Assembly (NCBI GenBank): GCA_965216325.1
Contig: OZ244160.1
Location: forward strand, 1,504,001 to 1,568,000
Direction: 5' to 3'
DNA from: Coraliomargarita sp.
Lineage (GTDB): Bacteria > Verrucomicrobiota > Verrucomicrobiia > Opitutales > Coraliomargaritaceae
Length of the DNA stretch: 64,000 nucleotides
Shown piece after piece: positions 33,307 through 49,900 of this stretch. The notes under the pieces are model-generated. The model searched no databases, was not told where the DNA came from, and saw only the letters and a list, made by a program, of their open reading frames with translations. Every line of letters begins with the position of its first letter. The first letter of the stretch is position 1. Made by a program: the position numbers and the translations under genes.

Positions 33307-34512
33307 TCATGATTTGCCAAGTCTTTCGAGCTGGTAATCACCAGAGAGGATACGCTGCCACCAATCTGTATTGTCCAGATACCATTGAACTGTTTTCCGG
33401 AAACCGGACTCGAAATCCTCTTTAGGCTCCCATCCAAGCTCATCGCGGATCTTAGTCGGATCAATCGCGTAGCGCATGTCGTGGCCGGGGCGGTCGGTGA
33501 CGAAGGTGATCAAATCCTGAAAGGATTTGGATGATGGATGACTGCTTGCGGATGACTGATCTGAAGGTGCGGCGCGGGACGCGCCTGCGCTACCTGAAAT
33601 CTCCTCTTCTAGAATTACACAGATTTTCTTAATCAAATCGAGGTTCGTCTGTTCGTTATTGCCACCGATATTGTAGGTTTCTCCAACACGGCCTTTCGCC
33701 AAAACTGTGTAGAGCGCCTCGGCATGATCGGTGACATAGAGCCAGTCACGAATATTTTCCCCCTTCCCGTAGACTGGTATCGGCTCACCTCGTAGGCACT
33801 TTAGGATCACGACGGGTATCAACTTTTCTGGGAACTGATAGGGACCATAATTATTGGAACAATTCGTCACCAACACAGGCAAGCCATAGGTGTCGCCCCA
33901 GGCACGCGCGAGGTGATCGGAAGCCGCTTTCGACGCCGAATAGGGGGAGTGTGGATCGTAAGGCGTGGTTTCGGAGAAGCCGGGAGCCTCCGCATCTAAA
34001 GAGCCGTAAACTTCGTCGGTGGAAACATGCAAAAATCGGAAGGATTTTTGCGAGGGCTGAGACTTGAGACCTGAGACTTGAGTGGGAAGGTGGGAAGGTT
34101 CTAAGGTGGGAAGGTCCGAAGCGTCGTTACGGGCGTGCGGAACGCTCGCCCCTACAGGCAAACTCCTCCAGTATTCGAGGCTGGCTTGGAGAAGGTTATA
34201 AGTGCCGACGACGTTGGTTTGGATGAACTCTCCGGGGCCATCGATTGAGCGGTCGACATGGCTCTCAGCTGCGAGGTGCATGACAGCATCCGGCTGGTGT
34301 TTTTCGAAAACTTCGGCGAGCGCAGTGGCATCGCAGAGATCGACCTGCTCAAAGGTATAATTCGGATGCTCGGCGAGATCGGCGAGCGACTCCACATTAC
34401 CGGCATAGGTCAGCTTATCGAGATTCACGACCTCACATGCTTTATTTTCAATGAGCAGTCGGACGAGATTGGAGCCGATAAATCCGGCTCCGCCTGTTAC
34501 TAATATTTTCAT
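33307..34512 (-). CDS. rmlB: dTDP-glucose 4,6-dehydratase with two repeat-derived in-frame inserts
   Basis: [36 protein letters not shown]. Confidence 0.95.
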
Positions 34513-34807
34513 AGTAAAAATCGAAGATTTTTGATTAAAGATTACGGATTAGGGATGACTGATGGTGATTGCGGAGAAAAAGGGGTCATGCCGTATATGT
34601 CTATATTTACTGCGGCGAGGCGAAGAGTGGCACTGCGTGCCGTTAAGTGGGAGAGCCTGCGGCTCGGTTAAGTGGTTGGGTAGTTGAGTGGTTCAGCCGA
34701 TGGCTGAGTTAAGTGGTTGGGGCGTTGGGTGGTTGAGTGGGTGCGCGGCGCGCCCTTTGAGTGCCGCGTAAAAGCGCTTTGCGCCACGCGATCGTGCTCA
34801 CTGCCGG

Positions 34808-35166
34808 TTATATTGGGAGCTTTCGAACACGCGAGCGGTCGGGCTCATAGCTCACGAGCGCTCCAGATTTCAAATCGGACTCAAAGGTTTTAAAACATGC
34901 CAGAACGCTGCGCCCCAAGACGCAAGGGCCAAAATTTGGGACCGGATCTGAAAGACACTAGGGCTATCCAAGTGGGAGGCCGCTAGGATGGTGCCAAAGT
35001 CTAAATCGTTGGTAAGGATCACCGCCGTGCGTTGCTTGGCCCATTCCAGAATCTCAGTATCTGGCGCATCTGGCAGCCCGATCCGAGTCCAGTGCTGAAC
35101 CTCGTAATCCTTATCAAATATCGTCTCCCACTCTGGTGAGAGATTCATGTCGATCACAACTCTCAC
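34808..35166 (-). pseudogene. DUF5615 PIN-like toxin, frameshifted
   Basis: MRVVIDMNLS...ILTNDLDFG. The expected C-terminus (LGRSVLACF...GALVSYEPDRSRVRKLPI*) is in another frame, ending at 34808. Confidence 0.75.
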
Positions 35167-35396
35167 GCAGATAACTCAAAGCTGAGTTCCTCTTCGCTCG
35201 CTCGCCATGCAGCGAAACGCAGACAGGCATCTATTTGCTCTGGGGTGATGTAGGGATACATCTCCAAGAGCCGCTCCCGCGAGGTTCCCGCGCCGAGCTG
35301 CCCGACTACACAGCCAACTGTAACCCGAGTGCCACGGATGCAGGGCTTGCCTCCCATAATAGAGGGGGCTGCGCAAATTTCGGGAAAGTGAATCAT
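35163..35396 (-). CDS. DUF433 antitoxin-like protein
   Basis: IMGGKPCIRGTRVTV...LLEMYPYIT..ACLRFAA. Confidence 0.88.
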   Translation of the reverse strand: MIHFPEICAAPSIMGGKPCIRGTRVTVGCVVGQLGAGTSRERLLEMYPYITPEQIDACLRFAAWRASEEELSFELSA

Positions 35397-35629
35397 AGTG
35401 GAAAGTCTGGAGGCCACTGCAATTAGGTCAAATGGAAAGAGCTTGTGAGGCTTCAAAGCGGGTCATGTCGTGAATTTTTCCAGAGGCGCTTCGTGGCGTG
35501 GACGCGAGTTTCGGTGGCGGCTGAGTGATTGGGGCGTTGGGTTGGGTGTGTGCCGCGTAAAGCGCTTTGCGCCACGCGGTTGAAGTTCCGCTACTTTGGA
35601 TAGGATTTAGACAGCGAAATTCCTCGCGA

Positions 35630-36058
35630 CTAGTAACTAATTACCTTCTGAAGCAGTTCAGGAACATGGTTCTGAGCCAAGTCCCACAGCGCGGCATCAT
35701 CGATGATATCATACCCGTGAGCCACCAAGTTCCGAAAGCCAATAATCTTACGATACTCGGGGATTCTTTGGGCGAGTCGTTCAGGATCCAAGCGCTCAAG
35801 GCGAACCAAAGCTTCACCGATAATCTGTTCTCTCATCTGCCCAGTGGGCACCCGACTCGATCCTCTCCTCTCAGGAGAGCTGACCATAAAGGGTCAGCCA
35901 TCTACGTGCATTTGCACTGCGTCAAATTCGCGCTCCAAGGCCAATTGGAGCAAACGATCGCAAAGAAAACTCTCAAAAGTTTTACCATCGACAAACCCGC
36001 TCAGCTCTTGGCAGGCAATCCGTATATCGATCAGTAATTTTTCGACGCTATGCGGCAT
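35630..36058 (-). pseudogene. HEPN/DUF86 toxin interrupted by a 96-bp insertion
   Basis: N-part MPHSVEK...ALEREF and C-part IIGEA...RNLVAHGY are in the same frame, separated by an insert containing TGA. Confidence 0.85.
35826..35921. mobile_element. 96-bp multi-hairpin insertion of unknown class
   Basis: Removing it restores GAA TTT GAG ATT ATC (EFEII); four hairpins; no TIR or clear TSD. Confidence 0.7.
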
Positions 36059-36350
36059 AAACAAGTTGCTTGGAATGCTGGACTGCACGCTCAAAATAGG
36101 GATTCCGAAACTTGCGGTTGACAATCAAATCAACCGGTCGCTCAAGCAATCCCTCAAGATCGTCCTTCAGTCCCATAAATTGCTCAAAGGCGCCTTGGTA
36201 ATCCACACGTTGGAATTCGACCAAAAAATCAATATCGCTCTCTGCACTGAACCGTTCTGAAACAACAGAGCCGAACACAAAAAGTGACTGCACCAAATGC
36301 TTTTCGCAAAGAGCTTTAATGCCTACCTGATGTTGCTCAATAAGGTTCAT
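36048..36350 (-). CDS. Minimal nucleotidyltransferase (MNT)
   Basis: LFVFGSV...SDIDFLVEF, RPVDL, NPYF. Confidence 0.9.
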   Translation of the reverse strand: MNLIEQHQVGIKALCEKHLVQSLFVFGSVVSERFSAESDIDFLVEFQRVDYQGAFEQFMGLKDDLEGLLERPVDLIVNRKFRNPYFERAVQHSKQLVYAA

Positions 36351-36925
36351 TACCTATATCATTGTGTTGACCTGTGGGGTCCGTCAAGGGCCCCAAATGG
36401 GGTCATGTCATTAGCTTTGTGGGTGTTCCTGGATGATTCTGCGCAAGAACCTAGGGCTTCAGGGGAACGGCGGGGGTGAAGGGGAACCGTTCATTACGTG
36501 AATGGACGTTAATTCTTGGAGGATGGCGGGAGGCACTCAGTTTTAAGGGTTAAGCGATTAAGTTTTAAGCTGCTATAGGACTGAAGGGGGCTGGAGCGCT
36601 ACGCGGGTGAGGCTCTTAATCGTAATCCTACTCTTAATCTTAATCTCTGTAGCGGAGCTTTTCCAGAAGCCGGAAGACAGAGGTCAGAGGACAGACTATT
36701 TTGCTGGAAGTGGGCTTCTACTTTTGAGCGGCCGTAACGAGTTCCTCGTTCCGCTACGGATCAGACGGCCAACTCAGGCCTCAAGTCTCAAACTCATCCT
36801 TCCAAGTCTATCTTAATCTCTGTGGCGGGGGGGAACCGTTCATTGCGTGAATGGACGTTAATTCTTGGAGACTGGTGGTGCTGAGGGGGGGGGACAAGCG
36901 GAACAGAATTCAGAATGATCGATGC

Positions 36926-37267
36926 TCAACCGCAAGCGATCATCGCACGAACTTGCTCAGCAAGCGGCTGGATATCATGCATAACCGTGCTCCACAGGAT
37001 CCGATAATCGATCACATCATAACCGTGTGCTAAAACGTTGCGCATTCCGATAATTTTGCGCCCATTTTCAATCCGCTCAAAAGCAGCTTCATTAAGCCGC
37101 TCCAATCGCTTAAGCGCTTCTCCTATAATCTCCAATTCACGCTCTACAGCAACCTGCTGCAGGCGACTTTGATTGAATACATCCTCGGTAACGCCATGAA
37201 GGAACGATTCAATTTCTTCAATCGCTGTTAAAATATCGACGCAGAGCTTTTCTTCTTTAGGCGGCAT
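36926..37267 (-). CDS. HEPN/DUF86 toxin
   Basis: AVERELEIIGEA and MRNVLAHGY. Confidence 0.9.
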   Translation of the reverse strand: MPPKEEKLCVDILTAIEEIESFLHGVTEDVFNQSRLQQVAVERELEIIGEALKRLERLNEAAFERIENGRKIIGMRNVLAHGYDVIDYRILWSTVMHDIQPLAEQVRAMIACG

Positions 37268-37559
37268 ATATTGACTCTTTATGTGCATCCACCTCTCTAC
37301 GGAAGATTGGGTTACGAATCGCGCTATCGCACACCAGATCTACTGGCCGCTTTAGCAAGGCCTCCAAGTCAGTCTTCAACCCCCAATAACAATCGAAAAA
37401 ATTCCGATCAGCTTGCCAATTAAACTCAACGAGAAAATCTGCATCGCTGTCAGGCATCTGTTCACCACGAACAATTGAGCCAAAGGCATACAGTGACTGC
37501 ACCGAGTGTTTTCTGCAGAGAGTTTTGATCTCTAATAGATGCGTGTCGTAAAGTCTCAT
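37257..37559 (-). CDS. Minimal nucleotidyltransferase (MNT)
   Basis: LYAFGSIVRGE..DSDADFLVEF, RPVDLV. Confidence 0.9.
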   Translation of the reverse strand: MRLYDTHLLEIKTLCRKHSVQSLYAFGSIVRGEQMPDSDADFLVEFNWQADRNFFDCYWGLKTDLEALLKRPVDLVCDSAIRNPIFRREVDAHKESIYAA

Positions 37560-37568
37560 TGTGGACTT

Positions 37569-37597
37569 AAGATGGCTGAGGAGTTCCTCGGCGTCAA
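37569..37597 (-). promoter_or_regulatory. Candidate sigma70-type promoter with operator for the MNT-HEPN cassette
   Basis: TTGACG-17 bp-CATCTT, 9 nt before ATG; palindrome GAGGA-NN-TCCTC in the spacer. Confidence 0.5.
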
Positions 37598-38079
37598 ACG
37601 TTGAAAACGTAAGAACTCAAGGGAACGGCGGAGCCGTTGATTGAAAGGTGAACCGTTAATTACGTGAATGGACGTTAATTTTGGGAGGGTGACGGGAGGC
37701 ACTCAGTTTTAAGGGTTAAGCGATTAAGTTTTAAGCTGCTATAGGACTGAAGGGGGCTGGAGCGCTGCGCGGGTGAGGCTCTTAATCGTAATCCTACTCT
37801 TAATCTTAATCTCTGTGGCTCTGGGGGAACCGTTCATTACGTGAATGGACGTTAATTTTTGAGGATGAAGGGACACCTAGTTTTTAGTCATTAGGTATTA
37901 GGGTCTAGGCGCTTAATCCTAATCTCTGAGGGAAGCTGAAATGGCTCCTGGGGGAAAGCGGCGACTTCGACTTGTTCAGTGTAGACTAGAGGCACGCTTC
38001 TACTTTGGCTGGGGCTGTCGAAACGAGTTCCTCGTTCCGCGGGCGGATCAGACGGCAGGCGAATACACGAAGTAGACTC

Positions 38080-38277
38080 CTAAGAAGCTACCGCAAACTC
38101 ACAAGCATTTGGCAACTCAGCATGCTTGGACGCATTGAGAATCTCAAGACCAACGATGTTACCGTCAGCATCATAATCCAAGATGACCCCAGGTCGATTT
38201 TCGTCACTCTCCACGATCGCCCGCTCGCTCAATACGATGCGCAATACATCGACTTCTGTATCGTAATTTACTTTCAT
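38080..38277 (-). CDS. DUF2283 domain protein (putative antitoxin)
   Basis: MKVNYDTEVDVLRI...VILDYDADGNIVGLEILNAS. Confidence 0.88.
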   Translation of the reverse strand: MKVNYDTEVDVLRIVLSERAIVESDENRPGVILDYDADGNIVGLEILNASKHAELPNACEFAVAS

Positions 38278-38537
38278 TTCAAATCCTCCCAATACTTAGA
38301 GACTTTACTGGTTTGGTAAGCGGTGACAACCACTTTAGGTTCCTTTGAATCATTGACTATGATCCGTAATAAATAGGTTTCACCGTGATCGTTGTTAAAG
38401 CGCGACTGATAACATTGCAGTCCATCCTTAGCGACCACCACTTGCTCTGGGTCCACCAAGGCAGCTTCTATCAGGGAAATTGATAGCCCACGCCGATCAA
38501 TTTCAGTCTGTGCGTGTTTTGATAAGGTAAAATTCAT
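38274..38537 (-). CDS. DUF4258 domain protein (RelE/BrnT-like putative toxin)
   Basis: LSKHAQTEIDRRGLS...LRII...VVVTAY; coupled to DUF2283. Confidence 0.82.
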   Translation of the reverse strand: MNFTLSKHAQTEIDRRGLSISLIEAALVDPEQVVVAKDGLQCYQSRFNNDHGETYLLRIIVNDSKEPKVVVTAYQTSKVSKYWEDLK

Positions 38538-38862
38538 TATTGTGGTCCCTGAAATAAAAGGATCGTTTCACGATAACGGCTGGGCAAAGTAAAAAGGGTG
38601 CTTGAGACCAAGCTGCAATTCAATGGGAGAACCTGGAGCCCCCAATGCGGTCACGTCATTACCTTTGTGGGTGTTCATGGATGATTCTGCGCAAGAACCT
38701 AGGGCTTCAGGGGAGACGGCGGGGGTGAAGGGGAACCGTTCATTACGTGAATGGACGTTAATTTTTGGAGGATGGCTTAGGGAAAGCGGAGCTTTTCCAG
38801 AAGCCGGAAGACAGAGGTCAGAGGACAGACTATTTTGCTGGAAGTGCGCTGCGCGTGTTGTG

Positions 38863-39153
38863 TCACAATCGGTTCTGCCAATAAGCCGGTTCGCGGTGGA
38901 GCGATGCGATTGCCAGAATTAAGATTTCGTCGTGCCTGATTTGATAGATGATTCCGTATGGAAACACCTTGGTTCGGCACCTACGGACATTGGCAGAAAG
39001 AAGATTCCATGCTTCTGGATAAGCGACGATTCTTTCCACTGAGTTTCTAATTTCTAATAAAAACCGCAGCCCCAAACCAATTTCTTTTTCTTCGTAGTCG
39101 GCAACCGCCTCATCCAACTCAAGTTCGGCGATGCTTAGAAATCGAACGTTCAC
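38863..39153 (-). CDS. RelE/ParE family toxin
   Basis: AELELDEA..Y, GLGLRF, FPYGIIY, ILAIASLHREPAYW. Confidence 0.88.
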   Translation of the reverse strand: MNVRFLSIAELELDEAVADYEEKEIGLGLRFLLEIRNSVERIVAYPEAWNLLSANVRRCRTKVFPYGIIYQIRHDEILILAIASLHREPAYWQNRL

Positions 39154-39383
39154 TGATTATATTTTCTCTCAAGACGCTCAAAAACGGCAGATGCCTCCAC
39201 CGAGGCGATCCGACCAGCATTATATGCGTTAATACGATCTTCGGATTCTGACGCCCATTTTTCGTCAATCGAAATTTGATGCGGTGCATCCAAGCTAGAG
39301 AGCAGTTTCTCCGCAAGACTGGCACGATCCAAGGCCGAAAGACCGAACACTTGATCTTCAAGTTCTTTAGTTAATGCACTCAT
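39150..39383 (-). CDS. Putative addiction module antitoxin
   Basis: LSALDRASLAEKLLSSLD...W..E.EDR motif; overlaps toxin start. Confidence 0.85.
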   Translation of the reverse strand: MSALTKELEDQVFGLSALDRASLAEKLLSSLDAPHQISIDEKWASESEDRINAYNAGRIASVEASAVFERLERKYNQ

Positions 39384-40220
39384 GTCTACAGGATCGGTGA
39401 ATACGTTATTTTGTCAATTCCGACCGGCGCTCAGGTTGGGGGAAGAGCAATTCAAAGCCCCAAATGGGGTCCTGTCATTACCTTTGTGGGTGTTCCTGGA
39501 TGATTCTGCGCAAGAACCTAGGGCTTCAGGGGAGACGGCGGGGGTGAAGTGGAACCGTTAATTACGTGAATGGACGTTAATTTTTGGGAAGGTGGCTCTG
39601 AAGGAAACGGCTGGAAGTGGGCTTCTACTTTGGGCTATGTGGCGGGCGCATCAAGTTGCGCCCCTACGGCTGTGCGGAGTCCTGCTACTTTCGATGAAGG
39701 TCCAAATGGGGTCCTGTCATTACCTTTGTGGTAGTTCATGGATGATTCTGCGCAAGAGCCTAGGGCTTCAGGGGAGACGGCGGGGGTGAAGGGGAACCGT
39801 TAATTACGTGAATGGACGTTAATTTTTGGGAAGGTGGCTCTGAAGGAAACGGCTGGAAGTGGGCTTCTACTTTGGGCTATGTGGCGGGCGCATCAAGTTG
39901 CGCCCCTACGGATGGGTTAAGCAAAGGGGTCCTGCTACTTTCGTGGGCCAAAGGGGTCAAACGCAAAATCTAAAGACAGGCGCTGCGTGCCGAGGAGTCG
40001 TCAAGGAGTTGAGTCGTTCGGCGGAGCCAGGCGGCTACGCCGAGTGGTGAGTTTTGACTGGTGAAGGGTGAAGATTGATGAACGATGGAAGACCACAGAG
40101 TGAAGTGGAGACGGTGTAAGCACCGCACTATAACGACTGCTGCGCTTTACGCATTCGACAAACTTATCGACGCGAGGCTTGAACATCGTCGTAGGTCTAT
40201 AGCCTAAGAGCGGGGAGAGG

Positions 40221-40604
40221 CTATTCCATAATTCGTTGAACTAATTGCTGACCGATCTCTTCTGCAAGCGTGCAATACAATCGAGCGTCGCGTATGCTAA
40301 CCTCGGGAAGATCCCCAGGATAGCGTCCATTTACGGCAAACAAAGTAAGTGTATCACAAAGATTCAATAGACCTTCTATTTCCCGCCCCTCAGACTGTTG
40401 CACAAGTCGATTAAGATCGTGAGTCCTTTCAATGTGTCTCCCGCGAGCAATGATTAGGGCCTTCAATAGCTTCTCCAGCATTTGCTGTAGGTGGAACATG
40501 CATGGCACTGTCAGTTCTTCCCCACTACGGATCAGGAGCTCAGCGACTCTCCAGTCCTCGTCGGCTTTATCCAGCCATTCTTGGATCTCCTCAGAAACCG
40601 CCAT
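40221..40604 (-). CDS. HEPN domain protein
   Basis: WLDKADED, FHLQQMLEKLLKA, THDL, RYP. Confidence 0.88.
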   Translation of the reverse strand: MAVSEEIQEWLDKADEDWRVAELLIRSGEELTVPCMFHLQQMLEKLLKALIIARGRHIERTHDLNRLVQQSEGREIEGLLNLCDTLTLFAVNGRYPGDLPEVSIRDARLYCTLAEEIGQQLVQRIME

Positions 40605-40929
40605 AGATAAGTTTCCCCGTGTCAACTACTTCGCGCTCAATTGAACTCTGCCATTGAGAGCGTTTCTTGAAGACGCTTTCGTGATCGACTATAATATCTT
40701 TGGCGACTGGCAGCTTACGAGTCGCTCGATATGCTTTGGTGGTATTGGAGAGCTTGTCGCCGTTACCATCTTCAACCACAACGAGCAGGTCGATGTCGCT
40801 TCCAACTCTTGCAGTCCCCCTCGCACAGGAACCAAACAAATAAATCTGCTTCGGATGGAGAGCTCGAATCAGTTCTTGCACCGCTAAATCGATCGACGAT
40901 TGGATCTCTTTGGTCATGTATTGATTCAT
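40591..40929 (-). CDS. Minimal nucleotidyltransferase (MNT)
   Basis: IYLFGSCARG....SDIDLLVV. Confidence 0.9.
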   Translation of the reverse strand: MNQYMTKEIQSSIDLAVQELIRALHPKQIYLFGSCARGTARVGSDIDLLVVVEDGNGDKLSNTTKAYRATRKLPVAKDIIVDHESVFKKRSQWQSSIEREVVDTGKLIYGGF

Positions 40930-41316
40930 ACTGTGGCGATAGAAAGTGAATGCAAGCTTCGTGAGGAGGGCGGCGGAACCGGACGGCTGCGCCGTTGATT
41001 GAAGGGGGAACCGTTCATTACGTGAATGGACGTTAATTTTTGGAGGATGACGGGAGGCACTCAGTTTTAAGGGTTAAGCGATTAAGTTTTAAGCTGCTAT
41101 AGGACTGAAGGGGGCTGGAGCGCTACGCGGGTGAGGCTCTTAATCGTAATCCTACTCTTAATCGTAATCTCTGTGGCTCTGGGGGAACCGTTCATTACGT
41201 TAATGGACGTTAATTCTTGGGAAGGTGGCTCTGGCTGGGGAAGCGAAGCTTTTCCAGAGGCCGGAAGACAGAGGTCAGAGGACAGACTATTATGCTGGAA
41301 GTGGGCTTCTACTTGC

Positions 41317-42579
41317 TCAGGGCTGGTAGGCGTTCGGGTGACGGGCGTGCGGAACGCTCGCCCCTACGGTTGCGCGGAGGCTGGCTTCAAAGACTTTCCG
41401 CGGTTGCCAGCTGAGTTCGCCACGAAGCTTGGAGGAATCAATCGCGTATCGAAGGTCGTGGCCTGGACGGTCAGACACCAAAGTTATGAGGCCCTCATAA
41501 CATTGGTGAGATGATTGATGATCGATGGTAGATGACTGATCTGAAGGTGCGGCGCGGGACGCGCCTGCGCTACCTGAAATCTCCTCCTCTAGAATTACAC
41601 AGATTTTCTTAATCAAATCTAGATTCGTCTGTTCGTTATTGCCGCCGATATTATAGGTTTCTCCAACACGACCTTTCGTCAAAACAGTGTAGAGTGCTTG
41701 GCAATGATCTTCGACAGCAATCCAATCGCGGATGTTTTCACCGGTGCCATAGACCGGAATCGGTTCCTGCTTGAGGCAACATTGGATGACTTTCGGGATG
41801 AGCTTTTCGGGATGCTGGCCAGCACCGTAGTTGTTGCTGCAACGTGTGATGATCGCCGGCAAGCCATAGGTCGTGTGCCACGACTGGACCAGGTGATCGG
41901 CGGCGGCTTTCGATGCGGCGTAGGGCGAACTCGGATTCAGGGGCGAGTCCTCCGTAAAGGGTGGGTCGCTTGGGCCGAGAGAGCCGTAGACTTCGTCGGT
42001 GGAGACGTGCACAAATCGGAACGATTTTTGCGAGGGCTGAGACTTGAGACCTGAGACTTGAGTGGGAAGGTGGGAAGGTTCTAAGGTGGAAAGGTCCGAA
42101 GCGTCGTTACGGGCGTGCGGAACGCTCGCCCCTACAGGCAAACTCCTCCAATACTCGAGACTCGCTTGCAGAAGATTATACGTGCCGACGACGTTGGTTT
42201 GGATGAACTCTCCGGGGCCATCGATTGAGCGGTCGACGTGGCTCTCAGCGGCGAGGTGGAGCACGGCGTGGGGCTTGAAATGCTGAAAGATCTCACTGAG
42301 TGATTTCTCCGAGAATGGTCGATGAGCGGTGGTCGATGCTTGAGCAGTATGGGTTTGCTCGGTGGCGGGCGCCGCAAGCAACGCCCCTACGTTTGGTTGG
42401 CCGAGATCGATGCGTTCGAACTGGTAGTTTGGGTGGCCTTTGAGGTCTTTAAGCGCCTCTGGATTGGCGGCGTAGGTGAGCTTATCCAAATTCAGGACCT
42501 CACAGCCCTTTTCCTCAATTAACATCCGGACCAAATGCGAGCCGATGAAGCCCGAGCCGCCAGTGACTAAAATACGCAT
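41317..42579 (-). CDS. rmlB: Second dTDP-glucose 4,6-dehydratase paralog; three inserts and a REP-derived C-terminus
   Basis: [36 protein letters not shown]. After LRATV the usual xWY is replaced by REP-encoded GASVPHAR. Confidence 0.85.
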   Translation of the reverse strand: MRILVTGGSGFIGSHLVRMLIEEKGCEVLNLDKLTYAANPEALKDLKGHPNYQFERIDLGQPNVGALLAAPATEQTHTAQASTTAHRPFSEKSLSEIFQHFKPHAVLHLAAESHVDRSIDGPGEFIQTNVVGTYNLLQASLEYWRSLPVGASVPHARNDASDLSTLEPSHLPTQVSGLKSQPSQKSFRFVHVSTDEVYGSLGPSDPPFTEDSPLNPSSPYAASKAAADHLVQSWHTTYGLPAIITRCSNNYGAGQHPEKLIPKVIQCCLKQEPIPVYGTGENIRDWIAVEDHCQALYTVLTKGRVGETYNIGGNNEQTNLDLIKKICVILEEEISGSAGASRAAPSDQSSTIDHQSSHQCYEGLITLVSDRPGHDLRYAIDSSKLRGELSWQPRKVFEASLRATVGASVPHARHPNAYQP

Positions 42580-42908
42580 GTGAGCAACGAAGTTGCAGTT
42601 GAGTGGTTCAGCCTACGGCTGAGTTGGGTGGTTGAGTGCCGCGTAAAGCGCTTTGCGCCACGCGGTTGAAGTGGGAGACTCTTAATCGTAATCCTACTCT
42701 TAATCGTAATCTCTGTGGCTCTGGGGGAACCGTTAATTACGTGAATGGACGTTAATTTTTGGAGGATGGCTTTGCGGGGAAAGCGGAGCTTTTCCAGAGG
42801 CCGGAAGACAGAGGTCAGAGGACAGACTATTTTGCTGGAAGTGGGCTTCTACTTTTGGCTCTGTGGCGGGCGCATCAAGTTGCGCCCCTACGGCTGTGCG
42901 GAGTCCTG

Positions 42909-43280
42909 CTACTTTCGATGCGGAATATACTCTCGGATTTGCGTCGTGCTGACGATCCAGAGTTTACCGTTCATAGTCGTCACCTGGCTGAGTCCACGCA
43001 GCAAGACATCCAATGCTTGCAAGATCTCGGAATACGTGGGGGCTTTGGACGGACGCAATACGATGATGCCTGCATACTTCTCCGGCGGATACTGCACTGG
43101 ATTCGAAAAGTCTAAGTCCAGCGTGACTAAAATGCGCGCTTCGACACGGCAAACTTCAATCAAAACCTCATCAATTGTCCCGGCGAGTTGCTGCGCCGTC
43201 ACCGAGCTCACGTCATAACCTGCTGCAGTCAGCAAAGAAAGGCCGCGCCGACCAAGGTTTTCATCTAACTTAAATTTCAT
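42909..43280 (-). CDS. DUF5615 PIN-like toxin
   Basis: MKFKLDENL, RILVTLDLDFSN, GIIVLR. Confidence 0.88.
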   Translation of the reverse strand: MKFKLDENLGRRGLSLLTAAGYDVSSVTAQQLAGTIDEVLIEVCRVEARILVTLDLDFSNPVQYPPEKYAGIIVLRPSKAPTYSEILQALDVLLRGLSQVTTMNGKLWIVSTTQIREYIPHRK

Positions 43281-43332
43281 CGCGTCGACGATTAACAAGC
43301 ACTTGAGCGGATCGACTCAACGGGGGCTTGAA

Positions 43333-43575
43333 CTAGGCAGTCTGCCCGAGCGGAACTTCGATGTAGCGCTCGCGCGACATCTCAGAACCATAAGCGATAC
43401 ATGCATAGATGTCTTCGCGCTCTAACTGTGGATAGTCTTCGAGGATCTCCTCCAAAGACATCTCAGTAAGCATATCCAGCACCAATGAGACCCAGATTCG
43501 ATGCCCCTTAATGCACGGCTTTCCGAAACAGACATCCGGATGAATCGAGATGCGGTCTAGATATTTTGGGTTCAT
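43333..43575 (-). CDS. DUF433 antitoxin-like protein
   Basis: RISIHPDVCFGKPCIKGHRIWV...YPQLEREDIYACIAY. Confidence 0.9.
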   Translation of the reverse strand: MNPKYLDRISIHPDVCFGKPCIKGHRIWVSLVLDMLTEMSLEEILEDYPQLEREDIYACIAYGSEMSRERYIEVPLGQTA

Positions 43576-44174
43576 GTTACGTTAAAAATGGCAAAGGCAG
43601 GGTAAATGTCAATTGAGAGCCTGCGGCTTGAAGGGGAACGAGCCCCCAATGGGGTCATGTCATTACCTTTGTGGGTGTTCCTGGATGATTCTGCGCAAGA
43701 ACCTAGGGCTTCAGGGGAGACGGCGGGGGTGAAGGGGAACCGTTCATTACGTGAATGGACGTTAATTTTTGGAGGATGAAGGGACACCTAGTTTTTAGTC
43801 ATTAGGTATTAGGGTCTAGGCGCTTAATTTTAATCTCTGCGGCGGAGCTTTTCCAGAGGCCGGAAGACAGAGGTCAGAGGACAGACTATTTTGCTGGAAG
43901 TGCGCTTCTACTTTTGGCTATGTGGCGGGCGCATCAAGTTGCGCCCCTACGGCTGTGCGGAGTCTGCTACTTTCGATGCGGGGGCCCCAATGCGGTCACG
44001 TCATTAGCTTTGTGGGTGTTCATGGATGATTCTGCGCAAGAACCTAGGGCTTCAGGGGTGGTGGCGGAGCCGACGTGTGCGGGTGAACCTTTAATGAACA
44101 TTGATTCTTAGAGGGCAGTGGGCAGAAGTGCGTCCACCGCTCGACAAGCTCGCGACCTTCGGCAAGTGGAGCAC

Positions 44175-44333
44175 CTACGGATTTCGCTTTTTAAGCTGTT
44201 TAGCCAAAGCCAAAGCCTGAGCATTCCATTCCAACTTCTGGCGGAAGCTTAGCTTGCGGTCCGCATCACGGCGAGCTGCCTCTGCTCCGCTCCAAGTTGC
44301 TACCTTCCAACTGGCTGAATTCCCTTCACTCAT
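44175..44333 (-). CDS. 52-aa small partner protein of the nucleotidyltransferase (not in ORF track)
   Basis: MSEGNSASWKVATWSGAEAARRDADRKLSFRQKLEWNAQALALAKQLKKRNP*; start overlaps the NTase stop. Confidence 0.65.
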   Translation of the reverse strand: MSEGNSASWKVATWSGAEAARRDADRKLSFRQKLEWNAQALALAKQLKKRNP

Positions 44334-44829
44334 GGCCCTCATTCAATTGGTCCAACTCCTCTAAATCAAGCAAATCACGTGGCCGCCCGGCCTGCTGTTT
44401 CATCGCACGCAAGTGCTCTAGGCCAACCACTGGAATTACCGTGTCCGCCCCTAGCTCATACTCAACACGCTCCGCATACATATCGGAGAAAGCAAAGGGT
44501 TCCTCGACGAAAATATCGACGGGGCAATCCATCAGTTGCTCACTGACCAGCTGATAAACCTGCATCCCTTTCTCTTGCTGCCAAATCCGTCGTTTCTCGG
44601 GGTCTGCAAAGTCCATCAAATCTACCGGAATGTTTGGACGATACCCATAGCGTGCAAAGAGTTCGAGTGCGCGTCGCGGGTTATTGCCATCGAGTGCGAT
44701 CACCAAATCGAGGTCACGTGTCACTCGGAGATAGCCATGCGCCAAAACCGCCAGCCCGCCAACCACCAGATAGCGAACGCCTGCTGCGTTCAGCGCGGCA
44801 AACAACTTTTCTAAATGTTCGGGGTTCAT
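44326..44829 (-). CDS. Nucleotidyltransferase, AbiEii/DUF6036-like
   Basis: YLVVGGLAVLAHGYLRVTRDLDL and MKQQAGRPRDLLD. Confidence 0.82.
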   Translation of the reverse strand: MNPEHLEKLFAALNAAGVRYLVVGGLAVLAHGYLRVTRDLDLVIALDGNNPRRALELFARYGYRPNIPVDLMDFADPEKRRIWQQEKGMQVYQLVSEQLMDCPVDIFVEEPFAFSDMYAERVEYELGADTVIPVVGLEHLRAMKQQAGRPRDLLDLEELDQLNEGHE

Positions 44830-44996
44830 TCTGACAGTGATGAATCGCGAGATACGCTCATAGTTTAAGCTGAAGCGACGAGGATAAAGGAATTACTACA
44901 TTCGGCGGGCGTCGCAATCAACGCCCCTACGATTTCACTTAAAACCTAATTACTTAACACTTAAGACTATCGACCGACCTATTAGCAGCTTTGCTG

Positions 44997-46511
44997 CTAA
45001 TAGGTCGGTCGATACAAATTCCTACTTTTCTGGGAGCGGTAGTCATTCGGCTCTTTCGCGATCGCTTCAAAGTTGAGCGGGCAGTCGTTCAACTCCTGCC
45101 AACGACTGGCAGCCGTGCCCCAGGCCTCGGCGGCAACGTCGGTAATAATCGCGAACTGGTGTTCGGAGAAATTCGCTTTCTCGGCATAGAGCTTCAGCTC
45201 CCCCGTAGCCCCTCCACGCACTGGATGTACATCGAGCCACACCAAGTCGGAGTCCTCATGCGTGTTCCCCGGCAGATAAAACTGGCGAACATCCTCACCG
45301 AGTTGCAGCTCGGCTTTACAAAAGCCCATCTTTTTCAACACAAAGTGAAAGTCCGTCCATAGGTGATTGCCGGAATCGGCACGCTCGACCTCCGCCACAA
45401 ACCAGTTTTTCAAATAGAGCGCATTCCTGGTATCGGCTCGCGCCTGGAAAGAGTCATTCAGCATCGCACGCAAAGAAGCTGCGGTGATTTTTTGACCACG
45501 CAAAATGAAGAGCACGATGACAAAGCCGAAGCCAAAGAAAATGGGTAGGTAACGCCCTTGATCTGCGAAGAAAAGCAGCGCTCCAACCAGTGCGACCAGG
45601 GAGCATCCATAGAGCACCATCACCGTGTTGCGGTGCGAGAGGCCCGTGCGCATGAGCCGGTGGTGAATATGCTGCTTGTCGGGACGAAAGAGCGGCAGGC
45701 CCCGAATTCCCCGACGAATCATCGCGAACGAAACGTCGATGATCGGCAGCGCCAGCGCCAAGACCGGAGCCAGTAAGGCCGCAGCGACCGCGCCCTTCTG
45801 CGAATTCAGCAAGGCCAGCGCGGCAATCACATAGCCGATCATGTAGGCACCCGAATCCCCCATGTATACCTTGGCTGGTGGAAAATTATGAAAGAGAAAT
45901 CCTAGAATCGCTCCGATCATTCCGAGCGCCATAATGAGCGAAAAGCCCCCCCCTCCAGTGGAATAGCTGAGATAGGCCAAGAGCACCATCAACATGAAGC
46001 CCACGCCGCCAGCCAAGCCATCGAGCCCATCAATCAAATTGATCAGGTTCATCACTGCCACAAACCAGAAAACAGTGATCCCCATCGAGAGTGGTCCAAA
46101 GGCGATCATGACATCGGTAAAGGGGATCATGAAGCGCTCGATCGACAAGCCACAGTAATAGGCCATCACACCCAAGCCAATCTGCGCCAGCAACTTGAGC
46201 TTCGCACCCAAGGGCCGCAGGTCATCAATAAAGCCTAGCAAGAAGGCACCCGCCCCCCCCACAAACACCGCATAGTGCATGAGTGTTTTGTTGTCTTTAT
46301 GATCCAACAACAGAAAGCACAGCAGATAGGTAACGCCAAAGCCAGCCACGAGCCCCACACCGCCGATGCGCGGAATGACACCGGTGTGCGTGTGGTGATG
46401 CTGTGGCTGTGCGGTGTTACCCTGCGCAAAACCAACGGCCAACAGACCATGAATCACGATCCACGCCGTGAGACAGCCAAGTAAGATGAAGAATAGGAAA
46501 GGGAAGAGCAT
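44997..46511 (-). CDS. wecA: WecA/MraY-family undecaprenyl-phosphate sugar-1-phosphate transferase with C-terminal extension
   Basis: PRIGG, GFIDD, NLINLIDGLDGLA, NFPPAKVYMGDSG, HIHHRL. Confidence 0.88.
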   Translation of the reverse strand: MLFPFLFFILLGCLTAWIVIHGLLAVGFAQGNTAQPQHHHTHTGVIPRIGGVGLVAGFGVTYLLCFLLLDHKDNKTLMHYAVFVGGAGAFLLGFIDDLRPLGAKLKLLAQIGLGVMAYYCGLSIERFMIPFTDVMIAFGPLSMGITVFWFVAVMNLINLIDGLDGLAGGVGFMLMVLLAYLSYSTGGGGFSLIMALGMIGAILGFLFHNFPPAKVYMGDSGAYMIGYVIAALALLNSQKGAVAAALLAPVLALALPIIDVSFAMIRRGIRGLPLFRPDKQHIHHRLMRTGLSHRNTVMVLYGCSLVALVGALLFFADQGRYLPIFFGFGFVIVLFILRGQKITAASLRAMLNDSFQARADTRNALYLKNWFVAEVERADSGNHLWTDFHFVLKKMGFCKAELQLGEDVRQFYLPGNTHEDSDLVWLDVHPVRGGATGELKLYAEKANFSEHQFAIITDVAAEAWGTAASRWQELNDCPLNFEAIAKEPNDYRSQKSRNLYRPTY

Positions 46512-46635
46512 CGCGAAGCGATGGTCTGGCAAAGCCAGACAAGGTGTGAGGTTTTAGGGTTTAATTGTTAGGGATTAGGAACTGAACCGTTTAGACTGTA
46601 GAAGCAATTGCTTTTTAGGGGCTAGTCCTTACTTT

Positions 46636-47391
46636 CTAGAGCTTGCTTTGACGAGAACGAATTAGCCCCTGTAACATCTTCGCGACTTGTCCACACTCGT
46701 CTATGAGACCTGACAATGCCTCGACATCGCAATCATACACTTCGGCTGCGATCTCCAGTTGCGTGGACAATTCTGCTGCCGATGCTTTGGCAATGTTCAA
46801 AAAGCGGATGGACTCTCTGAGGGCATCACGCGCCTCGCCTTCAGCGAAGCTCCAAATGGGGTCATGTCATTAGCTTTGTGGGTGTTCATGGATGATTCTG
46901 CGCAAGAACCTAGGGCTACAGGGGAACGGCGGGGGTGAAGGGGAACCGTTCATTACGTGAATGGACGTTAATTTTTGGAGGATGGCTTTGCGGGGAAAGC
47001 GGAGCTTTTCCAGAGGCCGGAAGACAGAGGTCAGACTATTTTGCTGGAAGTGCGCTTCTACTTTGGGCTCTGTGGCGGGCGCATCAAGTTGCGCCCCTAC
47101 GGCGGTGCGGAGTCCTGCTACTTTCGTGGGCCAAAGGGGTCAAACGCAAAATCTAAAGACAGGCGCTGCGTGCCGAGGAGTCGTCAAGGAGTTGAGTCGT
47201 TCGGCGGAGCCAGGCGGCTACGCCGAGTGGTGAGTTTTGACTGGTGAAGGGTGAAGATTGATGAACGATGGAAGACCACAGAGTGAAGTGGAGACGGTGT
47301 AAGCACCGCACTATAACGACTGCTGCGCTTTACGCATTCGACAAACTTATCGACGCGAGGCTTGTAAATCTCGATAGCCTTCACTCACCAC
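46636..47391 (-). pseudogene. Four helix bundle gene split by a composite repeat
   Basis: N-terminus VSEGYRDLQ at 47361..47391; C-terminal half AEGEARD..RFLNIAKASAAELSTQLEIA..KMLQGLIRS..* at 46636..46848. Confidence 0.8.
46849..47364. mobile_element. ~0.5-kb composite repeat unit (second copy ~39700..40181)
   Basis: Both copies begin TCCAAATGGGGTC and end CGACGCGAGGCTTG; the right ~250 bp appear identical; this copy replaces the middle of a gene. Confidence 0.65.
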
Positions 47392-47675
47392 GTGCCTATC
47401 CTAATCCCTAACAACTAAGTCCTAAAAACTCCAGCATGGCAGCTTCGCTGGCATGCTGCCGCCCTTGGTCGCACGGGACATTCCGAAACCAATTTTGGAG
47501 GTGCGCTTGCTATGAATGGATAGCGAATGGCGAAAAATGACTGTTAAAACGCGCTTGAGGCGCGGAGGGAGCGGCAGGGCCGCGATTGAAAATTAAAGAT
47601 TTAAAATTTCAGAGTTACAAAGTTCGGGCAATGCGAGTGGAGTCTTCAATATTCAATCGATAATCTGAAATAAGT

Positions 47676-48236
47676 CTAAATCACACTCTCACTGGAGTCG
47701 TCGGAGGATAATAATTCGGCCCCGCCGAGCACTGCAGTGACCACGGGCAGCAGTTTGACCATGCGCGCCTGCCAATTGATGAGGGTGCCCAAGCGTTGTT
47801 CGGCGTGCTTTCGCTGCGCGGGATCTGGCTCTGCCTCGATTAAGTCGCGGATGCCTTGAATCCTCGCAGCTCCGGACTGCAGGTGCGGATTGAACTGGTC
47901 CTGAATGAAGCCGCGCACCAAACGCTTGATCGAGAGCTCCGGCACGTAGTGATCCTTACGACTTCCAGCCACATACTGCACCTTCACCGCACCAAACTGG
48001 CGTAGCAGCTTTAAGCCCTGGCTGACGGAACCCTTGCTGATTCCCAAGCGCTCAACCTGATCGTCAAAGGTGAGCGGACGCTCCGCACAATACAGCACCC
48101 CATAGATCTCCCCCACCGAGCGCGGTAAGCCAATCAAATTGGCGGCACGGACAAACATCTCGACCATCGCGACTTCCCAGGGCTGCAAGGCTCTGGAGGG
48201 CGCTTCTTCAAAGGGAACTGTGGGCTCCGAGGGCAT
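47676..48236 (-). CDS. GbsR/MarR-family transcriptional regulator
   Basis: GLPRSVGEIYGVLY..PLTFD..ERLGISKGSVSQGLKLL...RKDHY; start taken at MPSEP. Confidence 0.85.
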   Translation of the reverse strand: MPSEPTVPFEEAPSRALQPWEVAMVEMFVRAANLIGLPRSVGEIYGVLYCAERPLTFDDQVERLGISKGSVSQGLKLLRQFGAVKVQYVAGSRKDHYVPELSIKRLVRGFIQDQFNPHLQSGAARIQGIRDLIEAEPDPAQRKHAEQRLGTLINWQARMVKLLPVVTAVLGGAELLSSDDSSESVI

Positions 48237-48336
48237 GAGGAGGGTCCGCGCAGTGGATCCGTTATTAGTCTTTAGGTGTTGGGCATTAGGAGGGCAGGAA
48301 CACTGCAGAACCACTATTCATGAACAATCGCGCCAA

Positions 48337-48360: not shown

Positions 48361-48475
48361 CCATACAACTAATGCATTTAGCGGCAAAGCTCAAGAGGGC
48401 TTCACCCTAGAATACCGAGGACGCAATCGAGCATTGCGACCACCCACACCAGCGGGCTTCGCAAGCAAAGCCCCT

Positions 48476-48811
48476 GCTATGTTCGTTTCTGTCAAGAGTG
48501 TAGAAGCGTGTGAGTGTTTTTACATAAGATAAGTGGTTTGTTTTGATTGCAATCGTCTTTGAGCGTCCACCGCGCATGGCCTCGGAGTTTCGATGATCCG
48601 GGATAACCTGCTATCCGTGTTTCTGAGTGTTTCTCAGAAGAGCACACTATGACCTATCCATTGGGTCATTCAAAAGCTTGGTGGCGAAGTGGCCTATTCT
48701 ACAAAATCGTTGTGTTGGCAACAGGGGCTTGGTCAGACTCACTCCGCACAAAGGAAAACTGCAAAAGAACGTTAAAATCAGAGGGTGAAGGCCTTTAGCG
48801 TTGGTTCGGAC
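48476..48811 (-). ncRNA. Candidate bridge/seek RNA region downstream of the IS110 recombinase
   Basis: ~335 nt non-coding end with hairpins, matches to both target halves (AAGCCCCT, TTGTAG) and to the donor end (ATAGCAG); exact RNA ends unknown. Confidence 0.65.
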
Positions 48812-49900
48812 TTATGGGTTTTGTCTGCTTATCAGTCCGAAGTCTTCGAGACTGCATTGGCCAGTGCGTATGCGCCACCAGTCCACGGCGAACTGCCGGG
48901 CGATGGCCACGGCAATTTTCTTGCGGGTCGCCTTACTGGTGGTCTCGTCGCTGAGCTTGGCCTGCCATTTACGCACCCCACTGTAGCCGGGATTCCACCG
49001 GATCAATAACCAGGCGCACTCTTGTAGCATATGCCGCAGGCGGGGACTGCCGTGTTTGTTGATCGAGCCCTGGAAACGCCGATTTGCACTAGTGTCTTCG
49101 CTTGGGCACAGTCCGGTAAAGGAACTGACCGCCTTGCGGTTGTTGAATCGCTTCCAGTTGCAGACCTCACGTTCGATCTGTTCATAGAGGACCACCCCCA
49201 TGCCTTTAGGCAGCACCCGTTCCGGCTCGAGCGCTTCGATACGTTCTTCGATGTTGCTGATTAGCTCGCTAAAGTGCAGGCAGTTTAACCGCAGTGGCTC
49301 CAGCAGGCTGATCAAAAAATCGTCGAGCTGTTCGAGTAGCTGCATCCATTTGCGCGGCTTCCACCAGCCGCTGGGTAAGGGTTGATCGTAATACAGTCCC
49401 AGACTCTTACCACGCTTGGCCGCACGGCCACGTTCTTTGACGAAGCTTTCACGCTGCCGGGTTAGGCTGCGGTGACGCTCTTCTTGCTCGCTGGGCACAC
49501 GCACGACACTGAAGCTGCGGTCATTGCCCCGCAGATAGCCGTCCAGACTCAAGACCATTTGCAACGCATCACGCGCGTCGGTCTTTACCTTCTTACCATG
49601 AGTGTCCCAGTTGATCGGGCGGATTACGTGGTTGTTCACGCCCATCGCCTTGAGCTTGCGGTGCAGGCTGTAACCAAAAGGACCGGCCTCGTAGCAACTT
49701 TGCAACTGCTCGCACTGAGTGCTCAGCTGCTTAATCCATCGAAGGAAGATATCAGGCTTCATGCGCTTCGCGCGTGAAGGGGCGCTGCTATCGATCTTCA
49801 TGACCACCACGTAGGTGCTCGCATGCACGTCAATGCCAAGCTTGATTACTGTGCCCAGTGCGTTCTTAGTTGTCCGTGTAGATGATGTGGGGTTTTGCAT
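48812..49900 (-). CDS. IS110 family DEDD recombinase/transposase
   Basis: LGIDVH, CYEAG, KTDARDA (DEDD RuvC-like); GLCPSEDTS..GSINKHG C-terminal domain. Confidence 0.95.
   Translation of the reverse strand: MQNPTSSTRTTKNALGTVIKLGIDVHASTYVVVMKIDSSAPSRAKRMKPDIFLRWIKQLSTQCEQLQSCYEAGPFGYSLHRKLKAMGVNNHVIRPINWDTHGKKVKTDARDALQMVLSLDGYLRGNDRSFSVVRVPSEQEERHRSLTRQRESFVKERGRAAKRGKSLGLYYDQPLPSGWWKPRKWMQLLEQLDDFLISLLEPLRLNCLHFSELISNIEERIEALEPERVLPKGMGVVLYEQIEREVCNWKRFNNRKAVSSFTGLCPSEDTSANRRFQGSINKHGSPRLRHMLQECAWLLIRWNPGYSGVRKWQAKLSDETTSKATRKKIAVAIARQFAVDWWRIRTGQCSLEDFGLISRQNP

Follow-up and report, generated by a model that had tools for sequence, protein, structure and literature searches.

We examined a 64,000-nt stretch of the genome of Coraliomargarita sp. 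(assembly GCA_965216325.1, contig OZ244160.1, positions 1504001-1568000; hereafter the window), which comes from a single-contig genome (G000:C1) of 3.06 Mb and 52.9% GC, and in which eight co-oriented toxin-antitoxin (TA)-like gene pairs and a second copy of rmlB, all on the minus strand, lie between a glycosyltransferase family 4 gene (GT4, wecA-like) and rmlB. Coordinates are window positions unless they are called genome coordinates. The account that we favor, and to which we give about an even chance, is that a TA island accreted in the spacer of the GT4-rmlB operon and that its own spacers were homogenised and expanded by recombination among repeats resembling bacterial interspersed mosaic elements (BIMEs). 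Its parts are of known kinds, namely a TA island in an operon spacer and BIME-like repeats that were amplified locally.

Gene identities in the island were assigned by Pfam matches, which bore out a preliminary description, made from the sequence alone, of eight two-gene modules and a second rmlB on the minus strand of a wecA-rmlB interval (Table 1). Type II/VII TA modules consist of neighboring small toxin and antitoxin genes that overlap or almost do, and the island fits this pattern: in seven of the eight pairs both genes match TA-associated Pfam families above cut-off, and the remaining pair, built around a nucleotidyltransferase (NTase), gave weak matches only. Because modules of the same family are only 35-52% identical to one another and tblastn found no close paralogs of the modules elsewhere in the genome (the sole outside match being a ParE at 44%), we infer that the eight are unrelated or distantly related TA pairs, predicted as such from their families, that were acquired separately and are not duplicates. 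The HepT gene of module 2 is interrupted by an in-frame stop; the orthologous pair is intact in contig C145 of the sister genome G002, which also holds an ortholog of the NTase pair at 75% nucleotide identity. A remnant of a gene of the 23S-rRNA intervening sequence (IVS) type matches PF05635 at positions 62-106 (E 4e-6, below cut-off) and aligns with residues 60-119 of an intact 131-aa gene in G003; in the window the gene is cut at 46850 by a repeat unit.

The spacers between these modules had been described as shuffled combinations of shared blocks, and they are indeed mosaics of the BIME kind, in which a 31-nt motif (T), blocks that we call A, E and F, hexamer-repeat hairpins and hairpins resembling repetitive extragenic palindromic (REP) sequences recur in differing combinations. 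Recent copying among spacers is plain: the 242-bp unit that is repeated in tandem is 97% identical between its copies, and the 262-nt block at 39926-40187 recurs at 47109-47370 with 99% identity. A further block of 237 nt, made of T and a hairpin, is 95% identical between 37625-37861 and 40983-41219. The left flanks of T (types A, B and C) and its right flanks (types R1-R4) look combinatorial, and they resolve into tandem T-hairpin copies and into hairpins nested between T and block E. The REP-like motif GCGGGCnnCGCAAGCnnnGCCCCTAC has 112 genomic matches, often as inverted doublets, and the block CTCTTAATCGTAATCC, found about 30 times in the genome, makes up one arm of long hairpins of hexamer repeats.

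T occurs 12 times, always on the plus strand, between 36484 and 46943 (up to 3 mismatches; chance expectation 0.00 from 100 shuffles). Each spacer from 36351 to 44174 holds one or two copies, as had been noted beforehand, and the spacers 34513-34869, 35457-35629 and 44830-44996 hold none. The earlier remark that no copies were noticed outside 36.4-47.0 kb holds for the exact form of the repeat, since all 12 genome matches at up to 6 substitutions fall in the array, but not for the repeat as a family: a search that allowed one indel and covered all but 24 kb of the genome found 38 sites, 26 of them outside the array. The motif begins with GAACC, continues with three direct repeats of about 10 bp (CCGTTAAT nn ACGTKAAT nn ACGTTAAT) and is usually followed by a run of T; it is thus composed of three tandem 8-nt units joined by 1-2-nt linkers, spaced 9+10 in the 12 array copies versus 10+10 in the members of the family, so that the array form is one base shorter. 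The family of sites is present in 31 of the 81 genomes surveyed from the bacterial family and in 7 of 20 genera, at 1-25 copies per genome, G000 excepted (37 in the same survey), and a reversed control gave 0 everywhere.

Outside the array, all 26 sites are intergenic, and 20 of them have their GAACC end 3-38 nt away from a gene boundary (as drawn by a crude caller from open reading frames (ORFs) of >=80 aa), following a stop codon, terminator-like, in 11 and preceding a start codon in 9. The neighbors are unrelated housekeeping genes, including lpxB, ligA, oppBC/oppD, nusB/ftsY, tatC, ksgA, pheA and nfeD/SPFH, and no functional enrichment was found among them (36 of 42 neighbor ORFs scanned). 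Many of the sites form inverted pairs 60-470 bp apart around differing DNA, sometimes a single small gene. One such pair (L029, genome 1944188-1944686) brackets a GxxExxY (PDDEXK_3) gene between AIR-synthase-like and acyltransferase genes and is present in both other genera examined (G013 and G006); in G001, of the same genus, the left T and the GxxExxY gene are seen before the contig ends. The two genes flanking this pair are co-oriented housekeeping genes, and in RNA the two inverted T could pair as a stem of about 30 bp enclosing the small gene, and would thereby form a processing site. Another pair, between GDPD and lpxB, is found in G000 and G001, and G013 has an 8-nt gap at that place. 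In G013, which belongs to another genus, three T also lie in a 115-bp tandem repeat (L019, C26:8410-8668); local amplification of T units is therefore not unique to the array of G000. To judge from this distribution, T is an old REP-like intergenic element of the bacterial family and has no special tie to TA genes.

The fold of T is slight. Its hairpin arises from the internal symmetry of the unit (TTAACGTTAA), and the DNA folds at -4.2 kcal/mol on the plus strand (z -1.3) and -2.9 on the minus strand (z -0.5); the statement that the hairpin pairs better on the non-coding strand is thus literally true, but the structure is weak and is lost in a C-to-A variant, carried by five copies, that folds at -2.8 without compensation. 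Since its sequence and helical phasing are conserved, T is probably a protein-binding element rather than a folded recombination site. A structured RNA composed of block A and T was rejected (z +0.45 and +0.17), as were small plus-strand ORFs following T (e.g., 42745-43218), which are broken by frame-shifting indels between copies. When 33-49 kb was scanned against Rfam (E up to 1), only two chance miRNA matches came up.

The interval itself differs among relatives and its breakpoints lie in the repeats, both of which had been anticipated. In G014 (12 nt), G012, G015, G007 and the metagenome contig L066, GT4 and rmlB adjoin or lie no more than a few hundred bases apart, with no TA pairs between them, and inserts of 3.6-7.7 kb separate them in G010 (sugar genes), G008 (including, by eye, a VapBC-like pair) and G006 (including, by eye, a HEPN/MNT-like pair and a GxxExxY-like gene). 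In the sister G002, whose GT4 is 91-93% identical, rmlB is followed by a 243-bp spacer and then GT4, and the spacer holds one T of 9+10 spacing and, after it, a hexamer-repeat hairpin that is 71% similar to those following T at 37827 and 43737. Because the T of G002 has the same one-base loss, all 12 array copies probably descend from one T that was native to the GT4-rmlB spacer; the array-type pattern (9+10) matches only one metagenome contig, at another locus, and the G002 contig. In G002, moreover, the NTase pair lies 435 nt from the orthologous counterpart of the module-2 MNT/HepT pair, and no T intervenes; in G000 a distance of 7.8 kb, taken up by six modules and every T-bearing spacer, separates the same two modules.

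Environmental relatives were compared through short Logan contigs from three studies (X5, X7 and X10) that were placed at 92% likeness. These carry the ParE, HEPN/MNT, DUF5615/DUF433 and NTase modules at 95-99% identity, with spacers that are without T units. Between 39431 and 39951, X10 has 27 other letters; the equivalent joint in X5 runs from 39443 to 47134 with 16 other letters and enters the 99% copy of the 262-nt block. The same 37 letters replace the DNA between 46877 and 47137 in X5 and X7, and both skip from 42669 to 42902. The ParE pair is kept beside the HEPN/MNT pair, the neighborship of these modules being all that the contigs allow to be checked, and an exact search for block A in the metagenome contigs gave 0 matches. 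Overall, the spacer units vary no less than the modules do. We set aside as evidence the parts of the island that lack metagenome cover (module 1 and GT4), the joints of a second isolate sample (X2), whose contigs only break at the repeats, and a joint from 34724 to 42624, which may be a mosaic of the two paralogous leaders.

A GGGGTCA-type boundary had been reported just upstream of several genes, and it was found at seven sites (GGGGTC at 34582, 35460, 36399, 38647, 39466, 43651 and 46858, those at 38647 and 39466 being variants); 9 of the 33 genomic matches to AA[ATG]GGGGTC[AC] fall in the 13.3-kb array, all on the plus strand. The boundary motif, GGGGTCATGTCATTA, is the terminal motif beside a Y1 transposase gene 1.1 Mb away that resembles REP-associated tyrosine transposases (RAYTs): the best NCBIfam match of the Y1 protein (genome 2644054-2645064) is to that family, at 56 bits (cut-off 80) versus 24 for IS200. 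Block A starts with CCCCAAATGGGGTCATGTCATTAnCTTTGTGG, which is found 10 times in the genome when up to 5 mismatches are allowed; the seven copies in the array are all single and on the plus strand, and the other three flank two adjacent Y1_Tnp genes (genome 2644054-2645733) in inverted orientation (GGGTCATGTCATTANCTTTGTG), where the motif encodes the last codons of the Y1 protein. The same motif, with a core of about 22 nt, flanks a 77%-identical Y1 ortholog in G012 and a Y1 remnant in G015. Within the island, the foot of this motif is where unique module DNA gives way to repeat DNA in five modules and in two empty junctions; on the other, left side the junctions fall in six different blocks with no consistent boundary, and module ends coincide with T only at 36871. 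Two units, 39457-39950 and 46849-47136, are bracketed by CCAAAKGGGGTC direct repeats. The guess that an HUH/RAYT enzyme might be involved therefore finds some support in the boundary motif, which is the terminal motif of a RAYT-like Y1 gene, but the dispersal across the genome that marks such systems, typically in the form of inverted doublets, is missing: the copies are those of the array and the Y1 locus, and no inverted doublets (REPINs, REP doublets forming hairpins) of the block A motif were found in the array. Block A was also considered as a coding remnant of the Y1 gene and was rejected, as only the last five or so codons match and blastx was empty. In other genera, a RAYT-type motif lies beside an RHS-type polymorphic toxin-like locus (L008, G010:C8) and the Y1 remnant of G015 (L004, C55) between TIR-domain-like and ATPase-like ORFs, settings that by eye are variable conflict-system islands.

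In the sequence of events that we propose, TA pairs would accrete in the spacer of the conserved polysaccharide operon running from GT4 to rmlB; the spacers are BIME-like mosaics of the ordinary intergenic repeat families of the lineage, namely T, a terminal repeat of about 25 nt of a RAYT-like Y1 gene, REP-type GC hairpins and long degenerate hexamer-repeat hairpins. Composite units of 180-260 bp would then be copied between spacers by a recombination route that we infer, likely unequal crossing-over and tandem duplication together with gene conversion or template switching that uses short shared motifs (AAAGGGGTC, CTACTTTCG) as anchors. Such copying would homogenise the spacers, and the repeats, once alike, would permit deletion, duplication (rmlB2) and reordering of the intervening DNA; a RAYT may have assisted the expansion of the spacers, and a dedicated cassette-capture enzyme would not be needed. 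Several points weigh against this account. It leaves the arrival of unrelated modules between homologous spacers unaccounted for, and gene conversion across anchors of 10-12 nt would be unusual. In all seven copies the left edge of block A is no more than about 2 nt away from the foot of the same hairpin and looks more enzyme-defined than a breakpoint would, and the 12 T and the seven RAYT-type motifs all point the same way. G001, the closest relative, is 80% complete and gave no module matches, and so affords no strain-level comparison, and the metagenome joints come from short contigs, one having a shorter side of 26 letters and some possibly joining paralogous repeats.

That sharp left edge is what would be expected if the RAYT-like enzyme drove the spread of the units, which we consider unlikely. 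The composite unit starting at the junction of ...AAATGGGGTC and ATGTCATTANCTTTGTGG would in this case be a non-autonomous element mobilised or nicked in trans by the Y1 (HUH) transposase at 2.644 Mb, and one-ended or rolling-circle-like copying would give a sharp left edge and variable right ends, with the TA modules perhaps as passengers. The inverted motif around the Y1_Tnp genes and at their G012 and G015 counterparts, the NCBIfam match, the concentration of seven of the ten motif copies in the array in a single orientation and the direct repeats around two units all speak for it. The RAYT score is, however, below the family cut-off, ten copies without REPINs are few, the content of the units varies between copies, the bracketing direct repeat occurs at two units only, which are themselves duplicates, and the Y1 gene is distant and its activity predicted from its sequence. 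A selected role, in which T/block A units are retained as, e.g., an operator, a roadblock or an antisense terminator that insulates the TA modules and in which copy number would reflect selection and not mobility, strikes us as rather improbable. The sequence and 10+10 phasing of T are conserved across genera and at orthologous sites, most of the outside copies hug gene ends, and T scores as terminator-like on the plus strand, 28 terminator-like sites having been counted versus 14.3 expected; yet the array copies have the atypical 9+10 spacing and lie 79-411 nt from the nearest gene start, not 3-38, their hairpin is weak, environmental relatives retain the modules without these units, and sigma-70-type promoters are not in excess (9 versus 10.1 expected).

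The array had also been called integrase-less, which is true locally, as the window has no IntI match, but not of the genome, which has three IntI genes above the TIGR02249 cut-off at 811, 2766 and 2854 kb. We observed a canonical integron at genome 811172-820029, in which IntI (811172-812605, minus strand) is followed by five small plus-strand cassettes with attC-like sites and, by eye, by an element with two tyrosine-recombinase-like genes and then TA pairs like those of the RelBE and Phd/YoeB types. The five attC-like sites beside IntI (811-816 kb) are, by eye, about 50-70 nt long, read roughly ..YTAAC..AGTCG.. loop ..YAC GTT.. and are unlike T; a loop motif common to three of the five had 93 loose genomic matches, none in the window. 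An attC site, of which each cassette has one, is an imperfect palindrome of 55-140 nt with R'' (..AAC) and R' (GTT..) cores and extrahelical bases, and T is 31 nt long with a weak fold; the absence of IntI would fit a cluster of attC sites lacking integrases (CALIN) only if attC were present. Precise boundaries on both sides of tightly packed cassettes were likewise not found, given left junctions in six blocks and spacers of 325-840 nt. A strict attC regular expression found 1 site, and a custom finder of AAC...GTT hairpins recovered about one of the five attC-like sites beside IntI and was too insensitive to be used as a test. The integron-like reading is weakly supported. The variant in which T, as an AAC...GTT palindrome with a bulged base, is a short attC-, dif- or pdif-like site for an IntI- or Xer-type recombinase acting in trans, which would make the array a CALIN with a new kind of site, is very unlikely in our estimation. 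It would draw on the three IntI genes, on the co-orientation of the 12 T and their presence in each of the seven spacers of 36351-44174, on the differing left and right flank types that meet at T and on the inverted T-type pairs that bracket single small genes elsewhere. Apart from the points above, T is basically three direct repeats, its hairpin is broken by a common variant, it sits stably in housekeeping operons across genera, module ends lie off T with the one exception given, and tandem T-hairpin copies explain the flank combinations.

The preliminary description had itself proposed repeat-mediated cassette capture and shuffling. That the locus varies, that its breakpoints lie in repeats and that the boundary is linked to a RAYT all agree with this proposal, but the T family is not linked to TA genes elsewhere, the hairpin is poor, the boundaries are one-sided, and in environmental relatives the spacer units vary while the ParE pair stays next to the HEPN/MNT pair. 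A bolder version, which we regard as distinctly improbable, is an integrase-free cassette exchanger. Spacer units ending in the RAYT-type motif would serve in it as portable sites of homology and nicking, and recombination, whether initiated by an HUH enzyme or driven by homology, would excise TA modules and even rmlB, capture them and change their order between strains; the island would then be a functional analogue of an integron made from REP-like repeats.

The BIMEs of enterobacteria are extragenic mosaics of REP or palindromic units (PU) and other short motifs. The spacers of the island resemble them in that a small set of motifs, including REP-like hairpins, is combined between co-transcribed genes and varies among strains; they differ in that here the mosaics crowd between the TA modules of a single locus, that one motif is private to the array in its exact form and that units of up to 180-260 bp are tandemly amplified. 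The pdif (Xer) modules of Acinetobacter plasmids are bounded by 28-bp sites of 11-6-11 layout (XerC-6-XerD) in alternating orientation. They share with the island small modules, often TA pairs, that are bounded by short recombinase-type sites, but the 12 T are all direct and made of three tandem units and do not have the pdif layout. With REP/REPIN-RAYT systems (PMC3116915, PMC3337134, PMC5581495) our genome has in common a gene for a Y1 HUH transposase between inverted copies of a short motif that also occurs away from the gene, and the differences are that our motif has 10 copies, seven in one locus, single and co-oriented, and that the protein scores below the NCBIfam cut-off. With integron arrays and CALINs, among them the TA cassettes of chromosomal integrons (Cury et al. 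2016, PMC4889954), the island shares co-oriented small modules, many of them TA pairs, a homogeneous repeat between them and IntI in the genome; it differs in its repeat, which is not attC-like and belongs to a family found mostly outside arrays, in its long spacers and one-sided boundaries and in the lack of IntI in the window. Chromosomal TA clusters and defence hotspots between core genes (Makarova et al. 2009, PMC2701414) likewise gather many unrelated TA pairs in one variable spot with conserved flanks, and the same spot is filled differently in related genera; particular to our case are the spacers homogenised by amplified composite repeats and the duplication of the flanking core gene rmlB inside the island. 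A limited literature search found no account of such arrays in Coraliomargarita or of RAYT-linked TA islands.

Table 1. Genes, modules and spacer units of the island and its flanks, in window positions
Feature	Position	Strand	Basis and remarks
rmlB1, dTDP-glucose 4,6-dehydratase, downstream anchor of the island	33307..34512	-	Pfam; TIGR01181 482.9 bits vs cut-off 365
Leader spacer of rmlB1: AAAAGGGGTCATGCCGTATAT at 34579 and 25/41-nt tandem repeat	34513..34869		Paralogous leader 42597-42672; motif also in G002 spacer
Module 1: DUF5615 (PIN-like) + DUF433	34870..35456	-	Pfam
Module 2: HepT + MNT	35630..36350	-	Pfam
Spacer: block A 36390-36527 (RAYT-type motif 36391-36413), T 36484 and 36833, hexamer-repeat hairpin, block E	36351..36925	+	
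Module 3: HepT + MNT	36926..37559	-	Pfam; 49-52% identity to module 2
Spacer: T 37650, hexamer hairpin, T 37827, hexamer hairpin (T-hairpin doublet)	37560..38079	+	
Module 4: DUF2283 + DUF4258	38080..38537	-	Pfam
Spacer: block A (38638), T 38733, truncated block E	38538..38862	+	
Module 5: ParE toxin + Unstab_antitox	38863..39383	-	Pfam
Spacer: A-T-E'-F 242-bp unit in 1.9 tandem copies (39460-39911, 97%), then 262-nt block 39926-40187	39384..40220	+	
Module 6: HEPN + MNT	40221..40929	-	Pfam
Spacer: T 41008, hexamer hairpin, T 41185, block E	40930..41316	+	
rmlB2, paralog of rmlB1	41317..42579	-	Pfam; above TIGR01181 cut-off; 69% identity to rmlB1
Spacer: leader hairpin, hexamer arm, T 42727, blocks E and F	42580..42908	+	
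Module 7: DUF5615 + DUF433	42909..43575	-	Pfam; DUF433 35% identical to that of module 1
Spacer: block A (43642), T 43737, hexamer hairpin, E, F, second truncated block A (43983-44058)	43576..44174	+	
Module 8: 167-aa NTase + 55-aa partner ORF	44175..44829	-	Weak AbiEii/DUF2204 matches
GT4 (wecA/mraY-like) glycosyl-phosphate transferase, upstream anchor	44997..46532	-	Pfam; adjoins rmlB in most relatives
Remnant of 23S-rRNA-IVS-type four-helix-bundle gene, 5' side cut by block A	46636..46848	-	PF05635
Last unit: block A, T 46943, E, F, 262-nt block	46849..47370	+	
GbsR/CudC-like helix-turn-helix regulator	47676..48314	-	Conserved across genera upstream of GT4

Some further features of the locus and the genome were noted. 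Both rmlB genes contain in-frame heptamer/octamer tandem repeats (34058-34115 in rmlB1 and 42038-42095 in rmlB2), and the rmlB2 ORF also contains in-frame REP-like hairpins (42100-42135 and 42357-42396); the proteins, of 401 and 420 aa, both score above the TIGR01181 cut-off despite these insertions. The 55-aa partner of the NTase, which has the motif TWAGAE..RR..LSFRQKLEWN, has no family match in Pfam or NCBIfam, and its homologs lie in the same polysaccharide operon of other genera (L023 1190-1384 in G008 and L042 631-804 in G002). Distinct intergenic repeat families are unusually numerous in this genome; a further one, GGTAGGGCGCGTTATCCTTAACGCGCCG...GATCGTTAAGGATAACGATCCCTACC, forms long inverted pairs, for example at genome 517516, 601036, 986031, 1017375, 1390180, 1440298 and 1962671. 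An IS110-family (RNA-guided) transposase gene lies at 48812-49900 on the minus strand, about 330 nt from a REP-like hairpin (window 48451-49900), and because the junction ...GCAAGCAAAGCCCCTGCTATGTTCGTTTCTGTCA recurs at six other REP copies (genome 1110803, 2070222, 2345900, 2604026, 2782854 and 2983882), this insertion sequence (IS) element is suggested to target the REP family.

If the favored account is right, the island would illustrate that no dedicated recombinase is needed for a striking cassette array and its private repeat to come about: an operon spacer takes in TA pairs, and a native repeat is then amplified between them. The cassette-exchanger reading, if true, would add a new route of gene-cassette turnover. 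The concentration of a RAYT-type terminal motif in one TA island offers a tractable test of RAYT action on substrates that are not REPINs, and T is of interest in its own right, since its three phased direct repeats recur across the bacterial family, close to gene ends and on either side of small genes. For this bacterial family, the locus marks a spot in a polysaccharide operon that has been colonised repeatedly by TA pairs in different genera.

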